From positions 46,190,001-46,254,000 of the forward strand of contig OZ024746.1 of assembly GCA_964016885.1 (NCBI GenBank): 64,000 bases of DNA. The letters run 5' to 3'. Below, piece by piece: positions 2,036 to 52,949 of this stretch. This DNA is from Eledone cirrhosa (lineage: Eukaryota). Made by a program: the position numbers and the translations under genes. The notes under the pieces are model-generated. The model did no database searches and was not told where the DNA came from. It worked only from the letters and a program-made list of their open reading frames with translations. The stretch's first letter is position 1, and each line of letters starts with the position of its first letter.

Positions 2036-3481
2036 CAACACTTATCGAGGCCTCTCTGGATTTTGGTATTTGTATCCATTATCATTACTACTATATATAT
2101 ATATTATAAGGATTCTTGAGTGGGAACAGTTATATTTTCTTGTTTATATATTGTCCTATTCAAGCTATTGAATATTTAATGTAGTAGCTTAGTTATATTT
2201 CACAAGTTTCATTTTCTACCCAGAAGTCATTGACCATCATTGATTGCTGAAAGTAGTTATAAAAGCTAATTATATTTTTAAACCCCGCTTCTGATTTTGG
2301 AAGTTTTTTATTGGTTGCATTATTTCCATGCTTGAATAAGCAAAACTAATTACTTGCAAGAATAGTAAGCAATGATAGTAAACAAGCAAAGAGAATTCAA
2401 TAATAAAATGTTGAAGCTTGTTCACCTGAAATATTTGCCAAAAGAAAGTTTCTCAATAGCTACTGGTATTGATACATTAACATAAATATATTTATAACAA
2501 GGAAATTCTTTCAACCAACTTAAGTAGATCAATCAATTTCTTTTCTTTTTTTTTTCTTTCTTTTTTTTACATTCTCAAAGCATATTGATAACCTAAAAAT
2601 ATAGATGTGTAAATGATGGATATAGACTAAATTGCTACATATATCTGGCAAGGAATAAAAGACATGCACAAATAGATGCAGATATAATAATATAGAGTTA
2701 ATGATATTGAGTATAGAAATAAGTCAATTTCTCATATCATAGATTGTAGCAATAATAGAGTTTATAGCCTTAAGGTTTCTTTAAAATAATATTGTATATA
2801 TAGGTAACCTATATTATAATGGTTTTGGAGAAGAATAAAAGTTATGATAAAAGTGTATTCTAACAAGCCAATGCATAATTGAATGTTATATATGTATTCT
2901 AAAAGAACCTCAGTGGGCCAAATTGCTTCATCCATTTCAAAGTTTATTTCAAAAGAATAGTGAAGATTACTTAAGAATTAAAAGTTATCATTAGTTTGCA
3001 TACTAGTCACAATACTGTTTTGCATCAATGACAAAAGTGACTTAGCACTCACAGGCTTAGTCTGCATAGATATAATTAAGTAGACACATGAAGCATACTA
3101 ATATCAAAATTTCCAACATTTATAATATACATACAAAAAGACAGTTTTTATTATAAGTGAAATTGGCTATTTTTGTAATAGAATCTTCAAATGTTGGTTT
3201 TTAATTCACTGACACTGATCAGTGATATATACATATATATTAAGTCTGAACATAATGAACTCAAATTCCCATTGTCTCTGCTTCAGTCTCTCTCACCCTT
3301 CCCATCTCTCACTATTATAAACAAATGGGGGCCCATACATACAACAACACCCATACTTGCACACACATACAGACCTACATATATATATTAACTTAATTGA
3401 TGTTGTCTAAATTCCAATGAAAGTCTTGTGTCTATGTTAGAAACTGGCTTTCTTTCCTTCTATTGATGAACATTTATAAAA

Positions 3482-3883
3482 TAATTGTTTCTGATTTAGG
3501 CACAAGGCTAGCAATTTTGGGGGAGGGGAACTCAATTAAATCAAACGAGTGTGTGACTGGTACTTTATTTTATCGATCCAGGAAGGATGAAAGGCAAAGC
3601 TAATCTTGGTGGTATTTGAAATCAGAATGTAAAGGGCCGAAATTCTATGTCGTAAAGCATGTTGTGCAAAGCTCTATCGATACTGCCAATAATTGTTTCT
3701 ACTTTAGGCACAAGGCCAGCAATTACCCAGTGCATTACTGGTACTTTATTTTATCAACCCCATAAGGATGAAAGGCAAAGTCAACCTCGGCGGGATTTGA
3801 ACTCAGATCGTTAAGGGATGTAACTATGCTGGAAAGCATGCCAATCCACTGCCTTTATATACTCTACCGATACTGCCAATAAT
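3482..3883 (-). mobile_element. Two nested tRNA-derived SINEs (family A)
   Basis: Two successive copies of ggtactttattttatc...aggatgaaaggcaaag...gatttgaa; ctcta(t/c)cgatactgccaataat is duplicated at ~3672-3693 and ~3862-3883. Confidence 0.8.
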
Positions 3884-10131: not shown

Positions 10132-12015
10132 AGTATTTCCATAGAAAAGGTAAAGGAAAGAAGAGTTCAGGGTCTCTGTCATAAAACTGGTGAATAGATC
10201 TGTATTCTATTATTTTAAAGTTATAAAATATTCTTTTACAGATGACTTTTCTTCTCGAGTCTGGCAACTATTGTCTACACTTAAATATATAGAGTGTGCT
10301 TCACAAATGAATTGATGCAGCTTATATTCTGAGATTCATTGGTATGTCGTATGAACAATAACCAACAATACACAAACATTTAATTTTATCAAACCATAAA
10401 ATTTCAGTCAGCTCACTTGATATGATAATTGTTTTATAAAACCATCTGTCTTAAAACTTGTATCAAAGTACAGTTGCAAAAATCTGTACAGATGTCAAAT
10501 AGAGATGGTTACATTGATCTGGTCAGGTGGCTAAATAGGGTACTAACTTTGAGGTAGAAAGCCCTTGCCTCCTGAGGAAATGGGGTTAGACAACATGAAT
10601 ATCTATTGAAAATATCTCATTAATGATGACAGACTGGTTTGAGCCAAAAATATAAATGACTGAAGCAAGATGAAAATCGATGTCAATGATATACAACCAT
10701 TGTGGTTGATAAACATTAGATGAATCAGCAGCTAGTAGTATATCTAAAGCTTTCCCCAGACACAACATAGTATGTAAGTAGTAGAATTTAACTCACATAA
10801 ATTACTGTCTCCATTCCAAGGTGCATAGACACAAATAGTGATGCCTCCCCTTGGTTATTTAACCTGTTAGAAATAGCAGGAACATCCCCATCAAATTGCA
10901 CCTGAAGAATGTCATCATGAAATGGTTATGACTGGAACACCTTTGATCACAGGCTTGCACAATCGGTGCTGGCTTGCTGTTAAACAACCAACACAACCAT
11001 ATTGAAATACTATCACGATTCTGTATTTTTTATATTGAGTAGCATAAATGGCATTACAATAATATTGAATATTTGAATATTTTTAAAAGACTGAATGCAC
11101 TCAAGACATAAAAATTGCTAACAATTATCCTTGTTGCTTACACTACACCATGAAAATACTAGTAAAACATAATCCAATATATATTGATAGGCGGGAAGTC
11201 TTTTTTATGAAAAGATAGTATAAAAGAAAATATTGTGTTGTGTCATACCTAATTTAAATAAGGACATTAAACTGATGTGAGCAATATATAAAAAATGACT
11301 AAAAATACAATAAAGAAGTGAAGGAGACAATTCGTAAAAGTAAATACATAAAATATGATACAAAAAGATGTGACTATGTAAGTATATGTATAAGACTGTA
11401 ATGTAAGTGAGAATATATGCACAACTCAGAAATATTAACCAATCTGTACACATACATATAAACTCCCAACAGACGAGCACATTATCTATAAATAAAAATA
11501 TTAAAAACAAACTTGTGATGCGAAGCAAATAACCTGATTTACATTTTTAAAAAAAATCATCTTACTCATATAAAGAAAGCAAATTCTCCATACAACATTT
11601 TCATGAACAGTAAAGCATCATCATTATACTTCTAACAAATCCTAGGACTTAAATTCTTGGCTGACTCTTCGTTGTAAACCTAAATGTCTCCCTTAGTGAA
11701 AGCTACATTACAGGTATTGAGTTTCCATTACAGAACCAAGAGATATTAAAGATGTGAATGGAATAACAGCACAATTATCCACTACACCACTGCTTTTATA
11801 GATTTATTTGAGATTAGTGTCATCACCTTTGCTGTAGACGTTATGCCATTGATATAAATATGGTAAAGCCTCACGGCAGAATTTTGATTTATTTTCAGCA
11901 CATCAGTATAATAAGCCCAAATAGTCATATCTTATACTATTCCATAGACAGAGTCAACAACTGATTCCCAAAATTTGCTATCCAATTCATACTACACAGT
12001 AAGTTGTACAAGAAA

Positions 12016-12137
12016 TAATTGTTTCTACTTTTTGGCACAAGGCCAGCAATTATCTCAGTGTATTACTGGTACTTTATTTTATCGACCCCATAAGGATGAA
12101 AGGCAAAGTTAACTTCGGCGGGATTTGAACTCAGACC
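12016..12137 (-). mobile_element. 5'-truncated SINE (family A)
   Basis: Matches the 3' two-thirds of 4399-4580 in reverse; aaataat on both sides. Confidence 0.85.
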
Positions 12138-13616
12138 AAAAAATAATATTTCTTGTTTTACTTGGATGAAGACAACTACTACAAAGCCTTTGTTGATATG
12201 CACTTCTCAGTAGTTTGTCAATGTAAATGCCAAGCCTTTGTGTTTCTAGCCATAATTGTAAGTGCCTCCTATGTGTAAACAAATGTAGATACATTTCACA
12301 TCAACAGGTCCCATTCCTACTTCCAAGCTGAGGAGTGAGCCAAAGTTTGAGTATCTAATTTCATTTTTTAATGTAATGGTTTGGCCAGAACAGGCAGAAC
12401 TGTCCATGACCATCTTAAAAGCTTCCATGTTTGATGAGAAGAGATAAAGTTTTCCTCACACAAGGCAACTAGCCCAAATATTTTTCATTCAGTAGACTTT
12501 ATTAAAGACACACAAGGGCCAAGTAGTAGTGTTAATTAATTCAAAATGTAGTCATTTAACATTATGAATATTGTTGCATTGATGCTAAAATATTTATGTA
12601 AATAAATAAAAATACATGTGTTAAAATATGCAATGTCAGGCGACAGAAAAAACAACATTGAAAATTAACTTACAATACATGCTTCAAACTTTGTTAATTG
12701 GAGCAACAAACAATTTCTGCTTCAGACATTATTAAGACAATCTAATAAGATATTCTAAGCATCAAGTACAGCAATATAACTTATTTAATACTTTATTTGA
12801 TATTTTGAGTTTATCCTTGGGTCACCTCTTCTCATTAGTTTCCCAGAAATAATGTCATTAATTTCAATTATGTTGATATGGACAGGAATTGCATTCAAAA
12901 TAACTTTCCTCCAATTTTTCCTAACCTATGTCATATCAACAGGCAGGCCTAAATAATAATGAAATTATCAAAATCATCTTAGCTATTTTTCTTGCCTACT
13001 AATTAAGTAAAACAAAAATGGAAAACATTCTTGTAAAAGCCAAATAACTTGAAAGACAGGTGACCTTTAGTAGTTACAATGAAATGTTCTACCTTCTGCT
13101 GTATCTTCTAATCTTTTGCAATCTACCTGATGTTTTTCATTGATAGCTTTGTATGTATCTTACATTCAGCCATATACACATACAACTGTATATATAGAGA
13201 GAAACAAAAGCTAGAATGTTATAATTATATTTACACAGAACTCTATGTTGTTCCTCTAAGCAAGTTACTTCTGCTTGCCTCAATTTGTCTAACAGATTCT
13301 ACTCTAACTTTTTGACTGAATAGGAAGTGATAAGAAGTGATTATTGGTAAAATATGATTAGTCACATGAGGGAAATTCAATTGTAAAAAATTGCTTAATC
13401 TCGGCCACATTAGTATTTGAGAAGTAAAATGTTGGTCTACCATGAGAATAAAAATTTAATAAAATGTTACATATTCCACTCCCTCTTCACACACCAGTAT
13501 ACCTCCACTTATTAATGTTTCCATTTGATTGGTCCTTGCCAATGCAAACTTACCAACATGAATTCACGTGGATTATCATTGTTTAAAAACATTTTTAATA
13601 AACAAACATTTCTTAC

Positions 13617-14285: not shown

Positions 14286-14580
14286 CTAAAAGTAAAGAAA
14301 GAAAGAAGAGAGAGACAGATCAGAAATCAATTACAAAGTGTCTCAAGGCATTTTAGTCAATAATTTAAAACTTGAAATGATGTAATCATTGATGGAATCT
14401 AATATTGACTTTAGTGTAATGATTAGCAAGATAACATGTAGCCATGGTAATTAGCATTACTCAATACTGTTAAGTAGTTGTTCCAATGATTTTTAATTAT
14501 ATTCGCATACAAAATGTCATCATACAATTCAAACCTGGTATTAAATATTATATATACCAGTTCTCTACACAGTATCTACA

Positions 14581-14761
14581 TAATTGTTTCCACTTTTGGC
14601 ACAAGGCCATCAATTACCCAGTACATTACTGGTACTTTATTTTATAGACCCTGTAAGGATGAAAGGCAAAGTTAACCTCGGCGGGATTTGAACTCAGACC
14701 GTAAAGAGACGTATCTATGCTGGAAAGCATGGCGTCCGACCCTCTACCAATACTGCCAATC
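14581..14761 (-). mobile_element. tRNA-derived SINE (family A), 11-bp TSD
   Basis: Reverse match to 4399-4580; TSD atctacataat at 14574-14584 and 14762-14772. Confidence 0.9.
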
Positions 14762-21334: not shown

Positions 21335-22087
21335 AAACTCAGACTAGAGAGGAACGAAGCTTGCATGCTCCGCTGGATGTGTAATAGTAATATACGTGAA
21401 TGGCAAAGCATAAATGAACTAAAGAAAAAATTAGAAATAAGAGGGATCAGATGTTGTTTACTCGAGAGAAGGCTACGTTGGTATGGACACGTGATGCGCA
21501 TGAAAGTCGATAGCTGTATAACAAAGTGCAGGGCAATAAAGATAGACGGTAGCCACGGAATAGGCAGACCTAGAAAAACCTGGGACGAGCTGATAAACTC
21601 CGACCTCACACACTTACACCTCTCCAAGACAATGTCACTGGACCGAGACCTTTGGTGGTACTCAGTAATAGAGAAGACCCGCCTTACCTAAATACATAGT
21701 AAAACCTACTACAGTCAGTAGGCATCCCTAACAAAATACACCCCCGTCCCACCACCCCCACCCCATCCACACCGCCCCCTTCTATGTAAAGTTATGTTGG
21801 TGCCACACCATCCAGGCTGAAACAAATGAGATCGTGTAGGTGTCACGACAAAAAAAACACACAGTCCACGCTGTAATGTGGCCATGTCGGCAACACGGTA
21901 AAAACCTCCCAGACCCACATTGTAAATGTGGTTGGTGTTAGGAAGGGCATCCAACTGTAGTAAACCTGCCAGACAGTCCTATGCGAGCAAGACAATCACT
22001 CTTGCCTCAAGTGGGAAAACCCCCGTCCAAACCCATGCAAGCGTGGAACACGGACGTTTAAACATTGATGATGATGATGATGATGAT
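21335..22087 (+). mobile_element. 5'-truncated RTE-clade LINE (ORF C-terminus, 3' UTR, (GAT)n tail)
   Basis: RLERNEACMLRWMC...RRLRWYGHVMRM...GRPRKTWDELINSDL (to 21691); 3' UTR ends ggacgtttaaacattgatgatgatg. Confidence 0.85.
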
Positions 22088-23639: not shown

Positions 23640-23645
<6 letters not shown>

Positions 23646-24300
23646 GAAACAAAGCTTGCATGCTCTGATGAATGTGTAATAGTAATATATGTTAACAGCA
23701 AAGCATAAACGAATTGAGAGAGAGACTGAGCACAAGAGGAATCAGATGCTGTGTGCAGGAGAGGGGGTTGCATTGGTATGGACATGTGATGCGTATGAAG
23801 GATGACAGCTGCATAAAAAGGTGCAGAGCACTAGAAGTCGAAGGAAGCCGTGGAGTGAGAAGACCCAAGAAGACCTGGGATGACGTGATAAAAGACGACC
23901 TTACCCAATTACACCTCTCTAGGGCGATGACACACGACATGATTTCTGTCATCACGCAGTAATACAGAAGACCTGACTTCCCACGAGTACAAGCCGAAGC
24001 TGAAGCATATAGACAATATGCCCCCACCCCTCCCACTGCAAAATGGTCATAGAAGTGCCACGGCAAAAAAGCACCCAGCCCACACTAAAGTGGTCGTGTA
24101 GGTGCCACGGAAAAAAAAAGCATGCAGCAATGACTGTAAATGAGGTTGGTATTAGGAAGGGCATCCAGCGGTAGAGATCAAGCCACAATCAGTTCCTGTA
24201 TGAGCAAGACAAGGTCAGCCGACTGGACACTGCTCACAACAGGACAACCCGTCTAACCCATGCTAGCGTGGAAGAATGGACGTAAAACGCTGATGATGAT
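23640..24300 (+). mobile_element. 5'-truncated RTE-clade LINE, same family as 21335-22087
   Basis: GLHWYGHVMRMKDDSCIKRC...RPKKTWDDVIKDDL; same 3' tail; starts in (TA)n. Confidence 0.85.
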
Positions 24301-24373: not shown

Positions 24374-24407
<34 letters not shown>

Positions 24408-24689
24408 TAAATCATGTCTTTAGAATCATCAGATATTAAAATATATACTATTTCTTCTTCTAATTAGCATAATTAACCATATACAAAATCAATCCTAGCA
24501 AGCTATAAGAATAAATTCTCTTATGGGGAAATCTCAGACAAATAACTGAACGTAGCCTCTTCGCGGCGGCCCCGTTCTAGTATTTATCCAACATTTCGAC
24601 AGCATGTAGAAACTGACGAAACATACCATCAACCATACACAATTAGTTGTAAAATTAAACTTAGAAGAAATGTGCACATACCGTAATTA

Positions 24690-24767
24690 TATCTCTACCA
24701 TGGTTTCTTCCTTATTTTGGACATCCAAATAATAGGAATGTCCTGAGCTAGGATTCATCAGGAGACA
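24690..24767 (-). ncRNA. Type I hammerhead ribozyme motif (minimal palindromic stem III, long stem II)
   Basis: UGUCUC-CUGAUGA-AUCCU...GGACAU..AUGUCC...AGGAA-GAAA-CCAUGG-UA-GAGAUA. Stem I 6 bp, intact CUGANGA/GAAA core, GUA triplet, predicted cleavage 3' of 24696. Confidence 0.7.
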
Positions 24768-25410
24768 AACTCAAAATCAGACATCTAGTTTTTCAATCCG
24801 ATCCCGCCAAAATTAGATTCAAAAATGGCTAGAAATCGCTATGTAGCTGTGTTCCAGCCAGAGAGAAAGAATGTGATTGGTTGCTTACGGCGGGTAGGCT
24901 TGCTGCTAGAAAGCGCAGTCAAATATCGCCAAATTTAATCTCAACCTATTGGGAGATTATTTGTTCGGTTATTTGTCTGAGATTTCCCCATGAGAGAATT
25001 TATTCTTATAGCTTGCTAGGATTGATTTTGTATATGGTTAATTATGCTAATTAGAAGAAGAAATAGTATATATTTTAATATCTGATGATTCTAAAGACAT
25101 GATTTATGATATAATGCTCTGATTTTTTGATTTTAATTTATTAATTCTTCATAGAGCTTAAAAGTGAACAGTTGCAACATATATATATCTTTATGTATAT
25201 GATAACCTTTATATTTAATAATCTCCCAATAGGTTGAGATTAAATTTGGCCATATTTGGCTGCGCTTTCTAGCAGCAAGCCTACCTGCCGTAAGCAATCA
25301 ATCACATTCTTTCTCTCTGGCTGGAACACAGCTACATAGCGATTTTTAGCCATTTTTTAATCTAATTTTGGCGGGATCGGATTGAAAAACTAGATGTCTG
25401 ATTTTGAGTT

Positions 25411-25488
25411 TGTCTCCTGATGAATCCTAGCTCAGGACATTCCTATTATTTGGATGTCCAAAATAAGGAAGAAACCATGGCAGAGATA
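25411..25488 (+). ncRNA. Second copy of the hammerhead motif, with a U16.1-to-C substitution
   Basis: tgtctc-ctgatga-atcct...aggaa-gaaa-ccatgg-Ca-gagata; C at 25481 replaces the invariant U. Confidence 0.6.
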
Positions 25489-25876
25489 TAATTACGCTAT
25501 GTGCGCATTTCTTCTAAGTTTAATTTTACAACTAATTGTGTATGGTTGATGGTATATTTGGTCAGTTTCTACATGCTGTCGAAATGTTGGATAAATACTA
25601 GAACGGGGCCGCCGCGAGGAGGCTACGTTCGGTTATTTATCTGAGATTTCCCCATAAGAGAATTTATTCTTATAGCTTGCTAGGTTTGATTTTGTATATG
25701 GTTAATTATGCTAATTAGGAGAAGAAATAGTATATATTTTAATATCTGATGATTCTAAAGACATGATTTATGATATAATGCTCTGATTTTTTGATTTTAA
25801 TTTATTAATTATTCATAGAGCTTAAAAGTGAACAGTTGCAACATATATATATCTTTAACTTTATGTATATGATAAC

Positions 25877-25880
<4 letters not shown>

Positions 25881-31402: not shown

Positions 31403-32620
31403 CATCATCATTTAACGTTTGCTTTCCCTGCTAGTAAAGGTTTAACAGTAAGTCAGTACTAAAGCGGATCTACTGGACTCACAGATAGGCTATGAGTTTG
31501 CATCTCATTTATAGATAGTTGCATACTCTACTAAGTGCATTTATCATGTCACCAGTACTAGGGAGGTTGTCATGTCTTTTACATAACTGAAGGGTCCTCT
31601 CAACCCTCTTTGGAAAGCTTTCTATGGTTGGATACGCTAACTAGCACCAACCCCTTTATAGTGTCATGGTTTTCACAATGAGTTGCGTTCCTATTACTAA
31701 CCACCTTACAGGGTGTACTGAGTGCAATTTCGTGGCACCAACTCTGCTCTGTGGGTGGGGAAAGGGAAAGGGAGATAAGTATGAGGTTATGGATGTATGA
31801 TAAGTGAGATATGATTTGACAGGGTGAGGAGTGGAGGGAAGGGGTGACCTCTGATAGCATAAGGGATGTAACGAAGATGAGAATACCTAAGCAGTGATAA
31901 TGGGAGGGAGCATTCACCAGAGTGTTGGAGCATTGGTGGGGGTACTGTCATGAAGAGAATAGCTAAGAAGCAGTGGTGGAGGGGGTATGGGAGAAGCTAC
32001 TCGGGTATGATAGAGCAGATACCTAAGGACTTTATGTGGGGGGATAGCTCAATATTGATAGTGGAAGGGTATAAGCAGGGTGCATAGGATTGTGAGAGTA
32101 GTTACTGGAGTACAATAGAGAAGGTATATAAAGACTTTTGAGGGGTGGAAGTGATATTGGGGGAGGGGCATGCAGTGATTGTAAGAATAGCTACTAGGGA
32201 TAGTGAATGGTGGGAGTCAAATTACATTTATGTTGGTGGCTAAGTTTTCACCAGCACACATAGTGCCAAGCCCTTGCGGCTTTGTTATTTCTATTGTAAA
32301 GGTTTAGGTTCTGATGATCAGTCTTCACTACTTCATCCAGAATCTTCCTAAGTCTGCCTCCTTCATGCATCCCAGTCACTGGGATTTCTCTGAATTTCTT
32401 TATACAGCTGCCATCTTCCATATGCATCACATGTCCATACCAGTGCAATCTTCTCTCTAGAATGCTACATCCAATTTCTCTTATGCCAAGTTTTTCTCTC
32501 AATTCGTTTATGCTACATCATTCATGCACACTAACATTACACATCCATTAGAGCATACTAGCTTTATCTATTTCTAGGCTTTGCAGGTATTCTGCAGTCA
32601 AGGCCCATGTCTCAATGCCA
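31403..32620 (-). mobile_element. 5'-truncated RTE-clade LINE with long 3' UTR
   Basis: ERRLHWYGHVMHMEDGSCIKK...GRLRKILDEVVKTD (32248-32502); tail catcatcatttaacg at ~31403. Confidence 0.75.
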
Positions 32621-33400
32621 TTGCTATCAGTCAGATAATAGCTGTTATTGTGTATATAGAATATTCTATGTATATTTTATCCAAATTCTGGCAGTAAATT
32701 CTTCCAGTTCTATCTTTTCCTCTTACTTAAGATACATTCAAAAAATCATAACTATTTTTTAGCAAATTAAATATTAATATATTTTTTGAGTGATACTTAT
32801 TCCTTTTTGATTTCATTTCTCAGAATTGCTTCACAAAAATAAATTACAATGTTATTATTCATGTGGTGTATTTATGTATTAACACTTATATCATATTTGC
32901 TTTTAAATTTATTTTGTTTGTCATATATCATATTCAAAACCAGACATAAATATTTTTCTAGACGAACCAGAAATACAGTAATGACATTTTAGAAAAAAAT
33001 AAAACATGGGTGAAAATGGTCAGAGTAATAAACTAAGAAATATAAACAATGTATAAGAAAGATGTAAAGTGCAAGAAAAAGTATATATTACATTATACAC
33101 ACACATACATATATGTTTAGATATGGAAGGTGATTAAATCTTTATTGCTGATCTCACTGTATTTTTTATATCTCGATAGTTAATTTATTTGGCAATCAAT
33201 GTTTATCATTGATTGACCAACAGTTAAAAATACAGATATAAATATATATATATATAGTCTATCAAAGTTCTTTAATCACTCATCAGCAACATCATCAGTG
33301 GTACTATTATGTTTTCTCCCATTATATTGTAAATCAAGGGAAAGCAAATAAAGAAACATTTTTAAATAAATTTAAAAAAATTCACTGTACTTACTACATG

Positions 33401-33484
33401 TGCCTTTACCGCGGTTTCAAATCGCAAAATGAATAGATAATCCAGGCGGATTTCCATTGAGAAAGAGATTATCGTCAGAAGGCA
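33401..33484 (-). ncRNA. Type I hammerhead ribozyme motif at the 3' end (pLTR) of a Penelope-like element
   Basis: UGCCUU-CUGACGA-UAAUC...GAUUU-GAAA-CCGCGG-UA-AAGGCA. Perfect 6-bp stem I, palindromic stem III, GUA triplet, predicted cleavage 3' of 33407; ~280 bp downstream of the GIY-YIG stop on the same strand. Confidence 0.68.
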
Positions 33485-33764
33485 TTTCTCTCTCAGAGAA
33501 TATAAAATTCCCGAGTTAAAAATTTCAAACTGGCGCCATTCCAAACTGACTCAAAATGAGAGTAAATTAATTAATTTATTTCTTCTTGTCTCTGTCTCCG
33601 CGCATGTATTTGCGTGTGTGTATAATGTTTGGTGTGTGTGTTCGCGTTAGAGTGTATGTGGTTTTGTTTTTCTATTCTATCTTTGTTCACTAGTGTGTGT
33701 TTATATGTGTTTGTTGTTATTGTATTTGTGTATATATATATTTATTTATTTATTTATATTTCCC

Positions 33765-34064
33765 TCAAGTCAGTATTGTTGTTTGGGTATGGTTGTTGTT
33801 GTTATTCCATTCACTCTTTTTATTCAACTTTGGTCGTCTTAGTTCTATCTCAGTTGCTTCCCTGATTTGCCTACCTGTTGAGTCATTTCTATGCTTAGAT
33901 ATTATTTTAATTTCTATGTTGCCTATATTGCCATCATGTGTTTGTCTGCCATATAGTACTGAACCATGTTTTTGTCCTTTTAGTTCACCCCAGTGTTGGT
34001 CTGTTCTTTCTTCTATGCTTCAAGCTGTCTCACCTACGTATGTTGTCATGTTTCTGCAAGTACC
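33765..34064 (-). pseudogene. GIY-YIG endonuclease C-terminus of a Penelope-like retroelement
   Basis: GTCRNMTTYVGETA*SIEERTDQHWGEL...SVLY...H...RQIREATEIELRRPKLNKKSEW...*, showing the YVGET...ER..xH and EA..I...LN motifs; one internal TGA at 34020-34022. Confidence 0.75.
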
Positions 34065-50549: not shown

Positions 50550-52578
50550 TACTTATGTTTAAATATCTCTAAGTGTACTAGGCTTATTTATTTTCCAGAA
50601 TCCACTTCCAGAATGATATGGATATAGTCTAGAGGAGTAATCATTAACAATTAGATGAAAAAGTGAACTTTATATATTGCTCTCAGTTTGCCTCATGTAT
50701 ACGGTATCCTCATTATCATAATCATCATCATTTTGATCTCAACTTTCTCTGCTAGCAAAGATTGGATGGGTCTACATAGTTCAAGTCAGTATAGAAGACA
50801 GGCTACTAATCTCCCAGACAGGCCAGAGATTTGCATATCACTTACATAGTCTCATATTCTACTGAGTGCACAGGAGAGGTTGTCATCTCTTTGACACAAC
50901 TGAAGGGTCTTATACAATTTCATAATCTGCAAATGAAATCTATAAACATATATCATATAGCACTCAATCATGTCAAATCTTTACGTCTGTGTCCAATATT
51001 GCATACCATTCAAAAATTTATTTCTTATAAGAAAAAATTCACAGATTAAAGGAATTTCCATCAATAACAATAAAAAATGTTTGAAATACTATTAAACGTA
51101 GTTCTTAACATTGATATATAAAATACTTAGATATGCAAAACTACCTTGCAAACTACAATTGGTTCCTATATTTTCTATAATCGATCTATCTATCATCATC
51201 ATCAATCTCTTATATATACATATATATAATCATTTTATTTAGACTAAATACTGAGTACATTTTTCTCTCAGCTGTCATATATAAGGAGGTGCTAAAATAT
51301 CTGGAGTTATTATTTCACAATGAAATACTGTTTTTCTACATTCACTATATCATCATAAGTTTTATTTATGCATTGCCTTAAGAAGATTTGCAACAAATTT
51401 CTTTTATTTGAACTTTTTAATACATAAATATTCTCTACACATACACGCACGTCAACTGTTTTTCTCTGTGATTTAGTTATACTTTTTCTTTCAATTTGGA
51501 GTGAGCTGTGTAGATGTTGTCATTTTCGATGGTATAGTTAATGATGGTCATCCATTTGAGTAGGTAAACAGTTGCTGTAGAAATTCTATTTTAATTGTAG
51601 TAGCTATATTCACTTGAATACTTACACATATAATAAACTTCATGAATGTAGAAGTATCATATATATCTTAATCTTTTACCTGATGCTCCTGAATTAATCA
51701 GTGAAATGACAATAAAATTGATTAAACTGTCACCACGAGAGGCTTCCAACTAACCAATTGAATATGAATACTCAGAGCAACATGCTTCTCAGCTCTGTAT
51801 TATCATCAAAACAAGTGTTTAATAGTTTTATACATTCAAATATGTCTAGCTTGAGAGATGAGCTGGTATAGACATTTTTTTTTTTTACTATAGTTATTTT
51901 CCTAAATTATAAACACAAACAAGAATATATTAGTAAATATATAACAAATATAAATACAGAAACATGTTCTTAATGTTGATTAATAGATCTTCAGAATCCT
52001 AAACATTTTGAAGTTTTCATGTGAGTTATTATTGCTGTATTATGTAGCTATTTAAAAACAACAACAGCAATAACAATAAAATGATAAGTATGAAAATAAT
52101 TTAGCAAATATCATAATGGCTCTATTTTCAATTTCTCATGAATTATTTATATATTTCAGTTGAAAAATTATTTGTAGTAACATCAGCCTGAATGTCTTTA
52201 GTACCAAACAATATTTATATTCAGTCTCCTAATGGCTTTTATAATTAAAACAACAAATCATATAAATATAATATAAATAATAATTTCTTAATTAAACATG
52301 AATTTTTAGTAATACAATGAAGTGAAAATTTCTAAGAACTGTGCCATTCTTTAAAAAGTAATTAGTGCAATGAAGATATTCAAGAAGGAACCTATTGACT
52401 GAGCATGTCGCCTGCAACCAAGGTTGTAAATGAATAACAATTATAGTTTCTTACTAAAGAAGGTATTTAGTGTTAACTGTTTTACCCCAGGAAAATGATT
52501 ATTGCTTATTCTCTATTAACTCTAGATTCATACTATTATTCTGTTAATACACCCAATGACAAGAGGTGGTAACTAGAT

Positions 52579-52758
52579 AATTTTTTCTACTATTGGCACA
52601 AGGCCAGAAATTACCCAGTACGTTACTGGTACTTTATTTTATCGACCCCGTAAGGATGAAAGGCAAAGTTAACCTCGGCGGGATTTGAACTCAGAATAGC
52701 AAGGGCCGTATCTCTATGCATCAAAGCATGGCGTCCAACCCTCTACCGATACTGCCAA
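52579..52758 (-). mobile_element. tRNA-derived SINE (family A)
   Basis: Reverse match to 18763-18946. Confidence 0.88.
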
Positions 52759-52949
52759 TGTCTGTTAAATATTTATAGAATATATTATTTAAATTTCCAA
52801 GCATAAATGACTTCTGAAATGTAGATTTTATTGAGCTACATGAGTTACTAAAACATTTATCATACCTACCATGATTACCATTAAAAAATCTCTACATATT
52901 TACTCAACCTGTTGGAAATGGCTTCCAAATCTCCTTCAAACCACAATGT

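Follow-up and report, generated by a model that had tools for sequence, protein, structure and literature searches.

Hammerhead ribozymes of animal Penelope-type elements are described as minimal, slow and lacking tertiary contacts, and what they do for these elements is unclear according to Craig et al. 2021. A hammerhead with an unusually long stem II, encountered in the 64,000-nt stretch of Eledone cirrhosa DNA analyzed here (the window), raises the question of what kind of ribozyme this is, what element carries it, and whether it cuts in the living animal. The sections below take up these points in turn, from the motif and its relatives to the mobile unit around it and the marks that cleavage may have left in the genome.

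A Type I Hammerhead with a Long Stem II

Re-reading of the sequence recovered, letter for letter, the hammerhead that an initial annotation had placed on the minus strand at 24767-24690. Its stem I has the six base pairs given there, one of them U-G; the CUGAUGA and GAAA boxes and the GUA triplet are correctly assigned and intact; and 47 nt separate the two boxes as the stem II domain. The parts of this copy and of a second one nearby are as follows.

24690..24767, minus strand: hammerhead copy 1, type I, core intact, read from the sequence
24767-24762 with 24695-24690, minus strand: stem I of copy 1, read from the sequence
24761-24755, minus strand: CUGAUGA box of copy 1
24754-24708, minus strand: stem II domain of copy 1, 47 nt
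24707-24704, minus strand: GAAA box of copy 1
24704-24697, minus strand: stem III palindrome ACCAUGGU of copy 1
between 24696 and 24695, minus strand: predicted cut of copy 1
24768..24773, minus strand: 5' flank strand UGAGUU, abutting stem I; predicted from covariation to be the pseudoknot partner of the stem II internal loop
24744..24749, minus strand: AGCUCA, 5' strand of the stem II internal loop; predicted pseudoknot strand
25411-25488, plus strand: hammerhead copy 2, matching copy 1 except for U16.1 to C
25405-25410, plus strand: pseudoknot flank of copy 2

The core is that of a type I hammerhead, with CUGANGA, GAAA and NUH arranged round a three-way junction and stem I open, while the R10.1-Y11.1 pair at the base of stem II is absent in the window clade, which has A-A instead. 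Copy 2 is probably inactive because its U16.1 has become C (25481, plus strand).

A search of the region against Rfam gave no hammerhead match, either at the gathering score or up to an E of 10, and the long stem II is the likely reason. The descriptor for minimal hammerheads (PMC4209133 supplement) allows a stem II of 3–7 bp with a loop of 3–10 nt, i.e., at most about 24 nt for stem and loop together, as against 47 nt in the window copy and 41–65 nt across its group; hence, the earlier suggestion that standard searches would miss this motif holds.

The 101-nt hammerhead region folds no better than its shuffles (z −0.11), and the active core is not formed in its local minimum free energy structure. 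The palindrome ACCAUGGU pairs with itself at −11.2 kcal/mol, and a monomer stem III of 2 bp adds nothing (−15.6 versus −15.8 with the stem open), so that cleavage as a dimer, the mode described in PMC4209133 and PMC7229834, is the one to be expected. This supports the original assignment to type I, with a palindromic, dimer-type stem III in a Penelope- or retrozyme-like repeat.

A Genome-Wide Radiation of Long-Stem-II Motifs

The initial annotation took the motif for an atypical variant and proposed a search that allows 30–60 nt for stem II. Run across the 3.0-Gb assembly, the pattern CTGANGAN{30,60}GAAACCRYGGTA gave 3,040 matches versus 4 for the reversed control. A second class of palindromes, overlapping the first, gave 694 versus 6, and a third (CAAUUG, CAUAUG or CGAUUG) 4,661 versus 225. 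With thousands of related motifs in the genome, the motif is neither a one-off nor "minimal."

Helices outside the pattern, namely the first three base pairs of stem I and pairs 2–5 of stem II, are present in 21 of 30 genome matches and in none of the 197 matches to a near-identical pattern in metagenomes and viruses; the latter look like chance occurrences and served as a null. When the search used the stem letters without those of the core, it returned 1,147 matches versus 0 in the control. Among the matches listed, GAAA is intact in 97 out of 100 (counted by eye), and of the 30 that were fetched, 27 have an unaltered CUGANGA and all keep U16.1, with N7 varying freely. Copies chosen without regard to the core thus preferentially keep the core boxes, as the initial annotation would have it. 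This conservation, taken with the excess over the control, indicates that the motif is not a product of chance, and the window hammerhead is, as judged from these matches, one member of a genome-wide radiation. The stem III hexamer is palindromic in most of the motifs (CCAUGG, CCGCGG, CUGCAG, CAAUUG, CAUAUG), the search patterns having favored palindromes. Since several thousand motifs in one genome escape both Rfam and the standard descriptor, the published counts of animal hammerheads are probably underestimates.

The A-A mismatch at the base of stem II, which had been singled out earlier, is indeed present in the window clade but is not a defining trait: its relatives have A-U, G-C, A-C or U-A at this position, and the unrelated family B of the window (see below) has U-U. 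With A-U or G-C in 12 of the 24 aligned relatives, the mismatch is, on this distribution, a derived state of a young clade. The R10.1-Y11.1 pair is itself usual rather than obligatory (PMC3088659), U-U in its place has been published (PMC3088659, PMC7229834), and the descriptor of the PMC4209133 supplement already permits one extra base on each side.

A Predicted Pseudoknot between the 5' Flank and Stem II

In the first two palindrome classes, stem II is made up of a lower helix of 4–7 bp and an upper hairpin, separated by an internal loop with about 5–7 nt per side. The 5' strand of this loop has its complement in the segment directly 5' of stem I: in the window copy this is UGAGUU/AGCUCA, a duplex of −4.7 kcal/mol, with AACUCA replacing AGCUCA in many close copies. 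Thus, the long stem II reported earlier is real, but its informative part is the overlooked pairing of its internal loop with the 5' flank.

Covariation across copies, a check that the initial annotation had suggested, supports this pairing. From 154 distinct motifs, 110 were kept (first two palindrome classes, UA at the cut, at least 4 of 6 stem I pairs), those left out being 25 of the third class and 19 dropped. In 24 clusters, loops pair with their own flanks at −4.36 kcal/mol versus −2.70 with swapped flanks, at a permutation p of 5e-5 that is the floor of the test and, as the clusters are related, overstates their independence. In a fixed register, there are 4.58 versus 3.32 Watson–Crick pairs, with four or more in 17 of the 24 clusters, and this result persists with 14 clusters at 70% identity; the other seven clusters average fewer than four, several of them being single decayed copies. 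The 3' side of stem II, tested as a control, gave p 0.47, so that a candidate pairing between the UUUU flank and the AAAA strand of the loop found no support across families.

The helices seen are GAGUU/AACUC, GAGCG/CGCUC, GAGAAG/CUUCUC, ACAGAA/UUCUGU, UGAAAA/UUUUCA and UCAGAA/UUCUGA. In the 24 aligned relatives, 99% of the 4-bp core of the pseudoknot helix is paired, as are 88% of the cells of the lower stem II, where 4 of 5 pairs show two-sided change, and 63% of the poorly aligned upper stem. Pair 4 of the pseudoknot is C-G in 11 relatives, U-A in 11 and U-G in 2. On a tree built from sequence outside the ribozyme, it switches between U-A and C-G once, while pair 5 takes the forms U-A, A-U, G-C and U-G but is U-U in two clades. 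Because the pairing lies where stems I and II normally touch, it is read as a tertiary contact, i.e., a Watson–Crick pseudoknot of the strand 5' of stem I with the internal loop of the long stem II, which likely holds the two stems together.

The third palindrome class, with 25 motifs, lacks the pseudoknot signal (p 0.33) and was, therefore, treated as a different architecture. Its roughly 4,400 matches above control (L149-L178; G000:C1) have a conserved GAGUC...CUCGAGC internal loop, and in two of them (L151, L152), the flank reads CUC and the loop GAG, the reverse of the arrangement in the window.

The flank in the window family can lengthen its pairing to 9 bp, in competition with the upper stem, into which this extension reaches. 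It may be asked, then, whether the pairing is rather a brake or a folding switch (e.g., for the monomer or a circle) than an activating contact. Tertiary structure attenuates the hammerhead of the barley yellow dwarf virus satellite, which would be a precedent, and the templates of the insertions discussed below were mostly uncut or re-ligated. However, the core of 5–6 bp uses only bases that are unpaired in the hammerhead fold, its register is fixed at the place of normal contact, and pseudoknots at a comparable place are activating (PMC3088659). A brake or switch thus appears quite unlikely, and the pairing is treated in the following as an activating contact.

The Repeat Unit and Its Insertion

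The surrounding repeat, noted earlier without further definition, turns out to be a 664-bp non-coding mobile unit. The insertion in the window spans 24401 to about 25880, is flanked by (TA)n runs, and has three parts.

24401..24961, minus strand: inverted arm, 561 nt, 5'-truncated at unit position 255
24963..25626, plus strand: full 664-nt non-coding unit
25627..25880, plus strand: partial second unit, with the long 3' end (unit position about 252-258) in (TA)n

The inverted arm crosses the cut site, and its short 3' end (unit position 151) meets (TA)n; the direct arm, at about 915 nt, exceeds one unit. The element holds no ORF above 57 aa. A DNA search found 1,699 candidate close copies, and 40 of these were scored, the matches being 97–100% identical. 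In subfamilies that are 65–100% alike, the unit closes on itself (664 to 1), and it also forms tandem arrays: the units of a 9-unit array of the A-A type differ at 6–42 of 664 sites and keep the core intact in 7 of 8 full units, and an array of about 45 units extends over about 30 kb (G000:C1:92.985-93.016 Mb; L297, L298). The latter starts with an inverted arm and finishes at the short 3' end, and so resembles a single insertion expanded in place.

Fixed 3' ends recur across the genome. A 27-mer near the 3' end served to select 53 loci, and of the 78 arms surveyed in them, 44 end at unit position 145–152 and 24 at about 223–255, mostly into (TA)n. The 23 insertions with two orientations pair one short with one long end in 17 cases and have one unclassified end in the other 6, and none has two ends of the same kind only; three single copies may be duplicates of one. 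The partial tandem, the inverted 5'-truncated arm, the tail at one end and the (TA)n target together make up a Penelope-like insertion. An inverted structure with a tail at one end has been described for Penelope-like elements (PMC8557442), and for an Anolis element two internal start sites with extension on both strands (PMC11167929), which one short and one long end per insertion would fit. At the same time, tandem non-coding units that each carry a type I hammerhead are the makeup of a non-LTR retrozyme. Folded as a circle, the ribozyme strand reaches a z at or below −2.6 in five of six units, versus −0.4 to −1.8 for the opposite strand (12 shuffles each).

A further complementarity was observed between TGTCT (25396-25400, plus strand), a conserved string upstream of the pseudoknot flank, and AGACA (25096-25100, plus strand), which immediately precedes the short 3' end. 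A compensatory change is seen once, in a clade that carries TGTCC together with GGACA, and one locus (L090) has T with G. This pairing may tie the ribozyme to the start site of reverse transcription.

Family B and the Coding Penelope-Type Families

The window holds a second family of long-stem-II hammerheads, here called family B, and near it the remnant of a coding element.

33401..33490, minus strand: family B hammerhead and flank, unrelated in sequence but sharing the architecture; motif 33484-33401
33807-34064, minus strand: disrupted remnant of a GIY-YIG endonuclease, with 49% identity to a 791-aa frame of Penelope type

Family B has UGCCUU/AAGGCA as stem I, a 53-nt stem II, the palindrome ACCGCGGU and a predicted pseudoknot of GAGAAA (33490-33485, minus strand) with UUUCUC. 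Its fragment in the window extends over 33331-33571 (minus strand); relatives lie in tandem arrays with a 487-nt unit (L179, L180), and the genome holds about 1,700 candidates. A link to the GIY-YIG remnant upstream was considered and rejected, with a (TA) run lying between the two; family B looks to be nested in the 3' region of the remnant's element. Elsewhere in the window are dispersed short repeats of about 150–300 nt (3480-3880, 12015-12170, 14579-14761, 52576-52766 and others) and a LINE-like fragment near 21345-21643, 23640-23938 and 32330-32514.

The 791-aa frame (G000:C4:241.65 Mb) belongs to a family with 36,065 candidates, which we take from its motifs to be Neptune-like and which carries its own ordinary short hammerhead about 232 nt after the ORF. 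A second coding family, presumably Hydra-like by its motifs, has 37,335 candidates; in the copies studied (L662-L667), no CUGANGA box lies between the end of the ORF and the (TA)n end (6/6), and no likeness to the 664-nt unit was found. These copies end in a short hammerhead-like motif with CAGAAGA for CUGANGA.

Neither of these two coding families shows homology to the 664-nt unit, and no RT or GIY-YIG ORF lies between repeats of the unit. A Pfam scan of 60 of the 198 flanking frames and of two reference frames yielded two RT matches, both downstream of a motif. One 654-aa ORF upstream of a motif, presumably a LINE-type RT, was rejected as a partner, being a separate element.

It might still be held that the 664-nt unit represents no more than a terminal repeat, belonging to an autonomous Penelope-like element with unsampled coding copies. 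Penelope copies are mostly 5'-truncated, and the genome searches gave best or first matches only, both of which speak for such an element. Against it stand the self-closing unit with its subfamilies and its arrays of 9 and about 45 repeats, as well as the upstream neighborhood: in 434 partly overlapping loci with 400 motif instances, wherever a Penelope protein match lies on the same strand up to 2 kb upstream, (TA)n separates it from the motif (10/10 rows). A hidden autonomous element thus seems highly improbable. Mobilization in trans by a Penelope-type protein is the mode proposed here.

Copies That Begin at the Predicted Cut

If RNA cut by the ribozyme is reverse-transcribed, some copies should begin at G1.1. 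Junctions were sought with a pattern in which the post-cut sequence is preceded by foreign letters at −4 and −3, and were classed by eye. In clade 1, the 22 matches resolve into 20 true junctions and two point mutants, and 16 of the junctions begin unambiguously at G1.1. The adjacent control, four bases upstream, has 7 matches with at most 5 junctions, none of them exact, and a control site about 60 nt downstream has 6 matches with uninspected flanks, again none exact. Clade 2 has 13 junctions versus 4 in its control, so that the two clades together have 33 at the predicted cut versus at most 9 in the adjacent control (one-sided binomial p 0.002 for clade 1, 0.025 for clade 2, 1.4e-4 combined). 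Family B shows no excess, with 7 versus 10 in the control. Another downstream control was discarded, as it consisted mostly of native sequence of another subfamily (5 non-A of 42). Copies joined to (TA) are likewise in excess just after the cut (29/941 versus 4/712, p 2.4e-4), which counts as secondary evidence because a longer imperfect TA likeness at the cut site confounds it.

Most copies tell of another template: 912 are intact across the site, about 95% reading through, and where a read-through copy exceeds one unit in length, its template must have been an uncut multimer or a circle. In three loci (L341, L353, L617), short abortive starts at the letters of the cut site precede a full copy, as if the reverse transcriptase had re-primed at the 5' end of the RNA.

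A pile-up of this kind could also come from a transcription start, or from a reverse transcriptase stopping at stem I. Penelope terminal repeats do contain promoters (PMC6765202, review), many families have a splice-donor-like GT 11–14 nt downstream of the cut, and the excess is missing in family B. Yet 16 junctions coincide exactly with the predicted scissile bond, as against no exact junction in the two matched controls, and the excess repeats in a second clade with a different post-cut sequence. Moreover, G at −1 occurs in only 4 of 20 junctions and is not in excess; this absence of a cap signature argues against a capped start site. Such an origin of the junctions appears distinctly improbable, and cleavage remains the preferred source of the excess.

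The splice-donor-like motif (GTATGT, GTAAGT, GTGAGT) is found 11–14 nt after the predicted cut in unrelated families; in the window it lies at 24681-24676 (minus strand), and in one clade, the GT stands at +3, inside stem I. Introns occur in Penelope terminal repeats.

That some copies start exactly at the predicted cut suggests that the ribozymes cut in the living animal. The junctions favor germ-line cleavage for the 660-nt group taken as a whole, weakly for the clade of the window copy, and not for family B. The nearest copies are of the A-A clade, that of the window, for only 3 of the 20 clade 1 junctions. The architecture could, accordingly, be active in the relatives while the A-A clade is weak or dead and spreads all the same, cutting being optional. 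The A-A state is fixed in the young clade (33/59 rows), whereas the relatives pair; exact cut-site junctions mostly lie nearest to A-U or G-C copies (14/20); of the mispairs at the base of stem II, U-U is tolerated best (PMC3088659); and in vitro, the Anolis Penelope hammerhead is dispensable for insertion, its mutants still inserting (PMC11167929). On the other hand, A-A copies do account for those three junctions and are nearest for 8 of 28 assigned (TA)-joined copies, and the A-A array has retained the core in all but one of its eight full units. Loss of activity in the window clade is, thus, unlikely, though it deserves some weight.

A Proposed Cycle

Taken together, these observations make it fairly probable that the element is a 664-nt retrozyme whose pseudoknotted type I hammerhead acts as a dimer and cuts after GUA. 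The proposal starts from what can be read in the DNA, i.e., motif, unit, arrays, (TA)n insertion, two fixed 3' ends, covariation and the junction excess in two clades, and would run as follows. Read-through transcripts of tandem units would fold, with the weak stem III of one copy being completed by a second copy; the hammerheads would pair through their ACCAUGGU palindromes and cut the RNA after GUA. The pseudoknot would stand in for the loop–loop contact at equal height on both stems, namely 6 bp of stem I and 5–7 bp of stem II. Cleavage would free RNA of unit length, and circles may then form by the action of a host ligase. A Penelope-type RT/GIY-YIG protein would, in trans, nick (TA)n, and each strand would be primed from its own internal site, the two sites lying about 100 nt from each other; the outcome would be inverted insertions of which one end is short and the other long. 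Most cDNAs would cross the cut site, having been copied from an uncut multimer or a circle, and a few percent would stop at the cut 5' end.

Comparison with Known Systems

Close parallels are the metazoan non-LTR retrozymes (Cervera and de la Pena 2020, PMC7229834; bioRxiv 10.64898/2026.07.22.740005), which likewise have a non-coding tandem unit with one type I hammerhead each, occur as dispersed monomers and arrays, have a weak stem III and are proposed to depend on Penelope elements; the 664-nt unit falls within the 51–972 bp range of retrozymes given by Li, Clavereau and Pollet 2026 (10.64898/2026.07.22.740005). Their hammerheads have a short helix II and loop–loop contacts, whereas helix II of the window group is 41–65 nt long with an internal loop that could pair with the flank. 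Retrozymes are, moreover, defined by abundant linear and circular monomer RNA. Eight of nine Xenopus retrozyme dimers did not cut (10.64898/2026.07.22.740005), which speaks against the proposed dimer cleavage.

The hammerheads of Penelope terminal repeats (Cervera and de la Pena 2014, PMC4209133) are likewise of type I, with a palindromic stem III and a predicted dimer, and Penelope-like elements share the inverted, partial-tandem insertions with a tail at one end and (TA)n (PMC8557442, PMC11167929). In the published minimal hammerheads helix II has 6–8 bp (PMC4209133), and characteristic tertiary interactions are usually lacking, as reviewed in PMC6155905; by contrast, the window motif combines a stem I of the full 6 bp with a long helix II in two parts and a predicted pseudoknot that covaries. 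The tail is about 100 nt in the window unit as against 30–40 in Penelope-like elements, and the unit has no ORF.

Elements of the predicted fold also have precedents. The hammerheads described in 2021 in PMC7936874, which were shown to cut, share the 5-bp stem, internal loop and extra hairpin, and the 5' strand of their internal loop forms a Watson–Crick pseudoknot with the other arm. They are, however, a mirror image of the present case: in them, a long helix I pairs with loop II in a type III fold, whereas the window motif has a type I fold of the dimer type, its long helix II being predicted to pair with a single-stranded 5' flank. In the pseudoknotted hammerheads of Perreault et al. 2011 (PMC3088659), reported for all three types, a Watson–Crick pseudoknot replaces the loop–loop contact and is needed for fast cleavage; terminal loops or tails are the partners there, for the most part in prokaryotic motifs of type II, and the sections surveyed give no internal loop of a long stem II as a partner. 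The PK hammerhead of PMC11300833 is folded differently: what is replaced there is helix II itself.

Neither a pseudoknot formed by the internal loop of stem II in a dimer-type hammerhead of type I nor a junction pile-up at a Penelope hammerhead was encountered in the text of the literature surveyed (figures aside), although an earlier description in Lunse et al. 2017 or Arkhipova et al. 2017 is possible. The motif is thus seen as a structurally new variant among the type I hammerheads of retrozymes and Penelope-like elements, a known ribozyme in a known kind of element.

General Considerations

A bolder reading, which we put forward tentatively, being slightly readier to doubt than to accept it, is that these motifs constitute a distinct subclass of hammerheads, locked to the dimer, pseudoknotted and cutting in the germ line, whose 5' junctions form a fossil record of cleaved RNA as the template of Penelope-type proteins. 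The pseudoknot with the stem II internal loop, if real, would be a new way of stabilizing the fold that is combined with control by dimerization. Frangieh et al. 2024 did not find RNA-seq reads ending at the cut; the counting of 5' junctions at a predicted cut needs a genome assembly only and can be used for any family. If the reading of these junctions is true, hammerhead-cleaved RNA would serve as a template for Penelope-type retrotransposition, a point that the literature, as far as its text was surveyed, leaves open.
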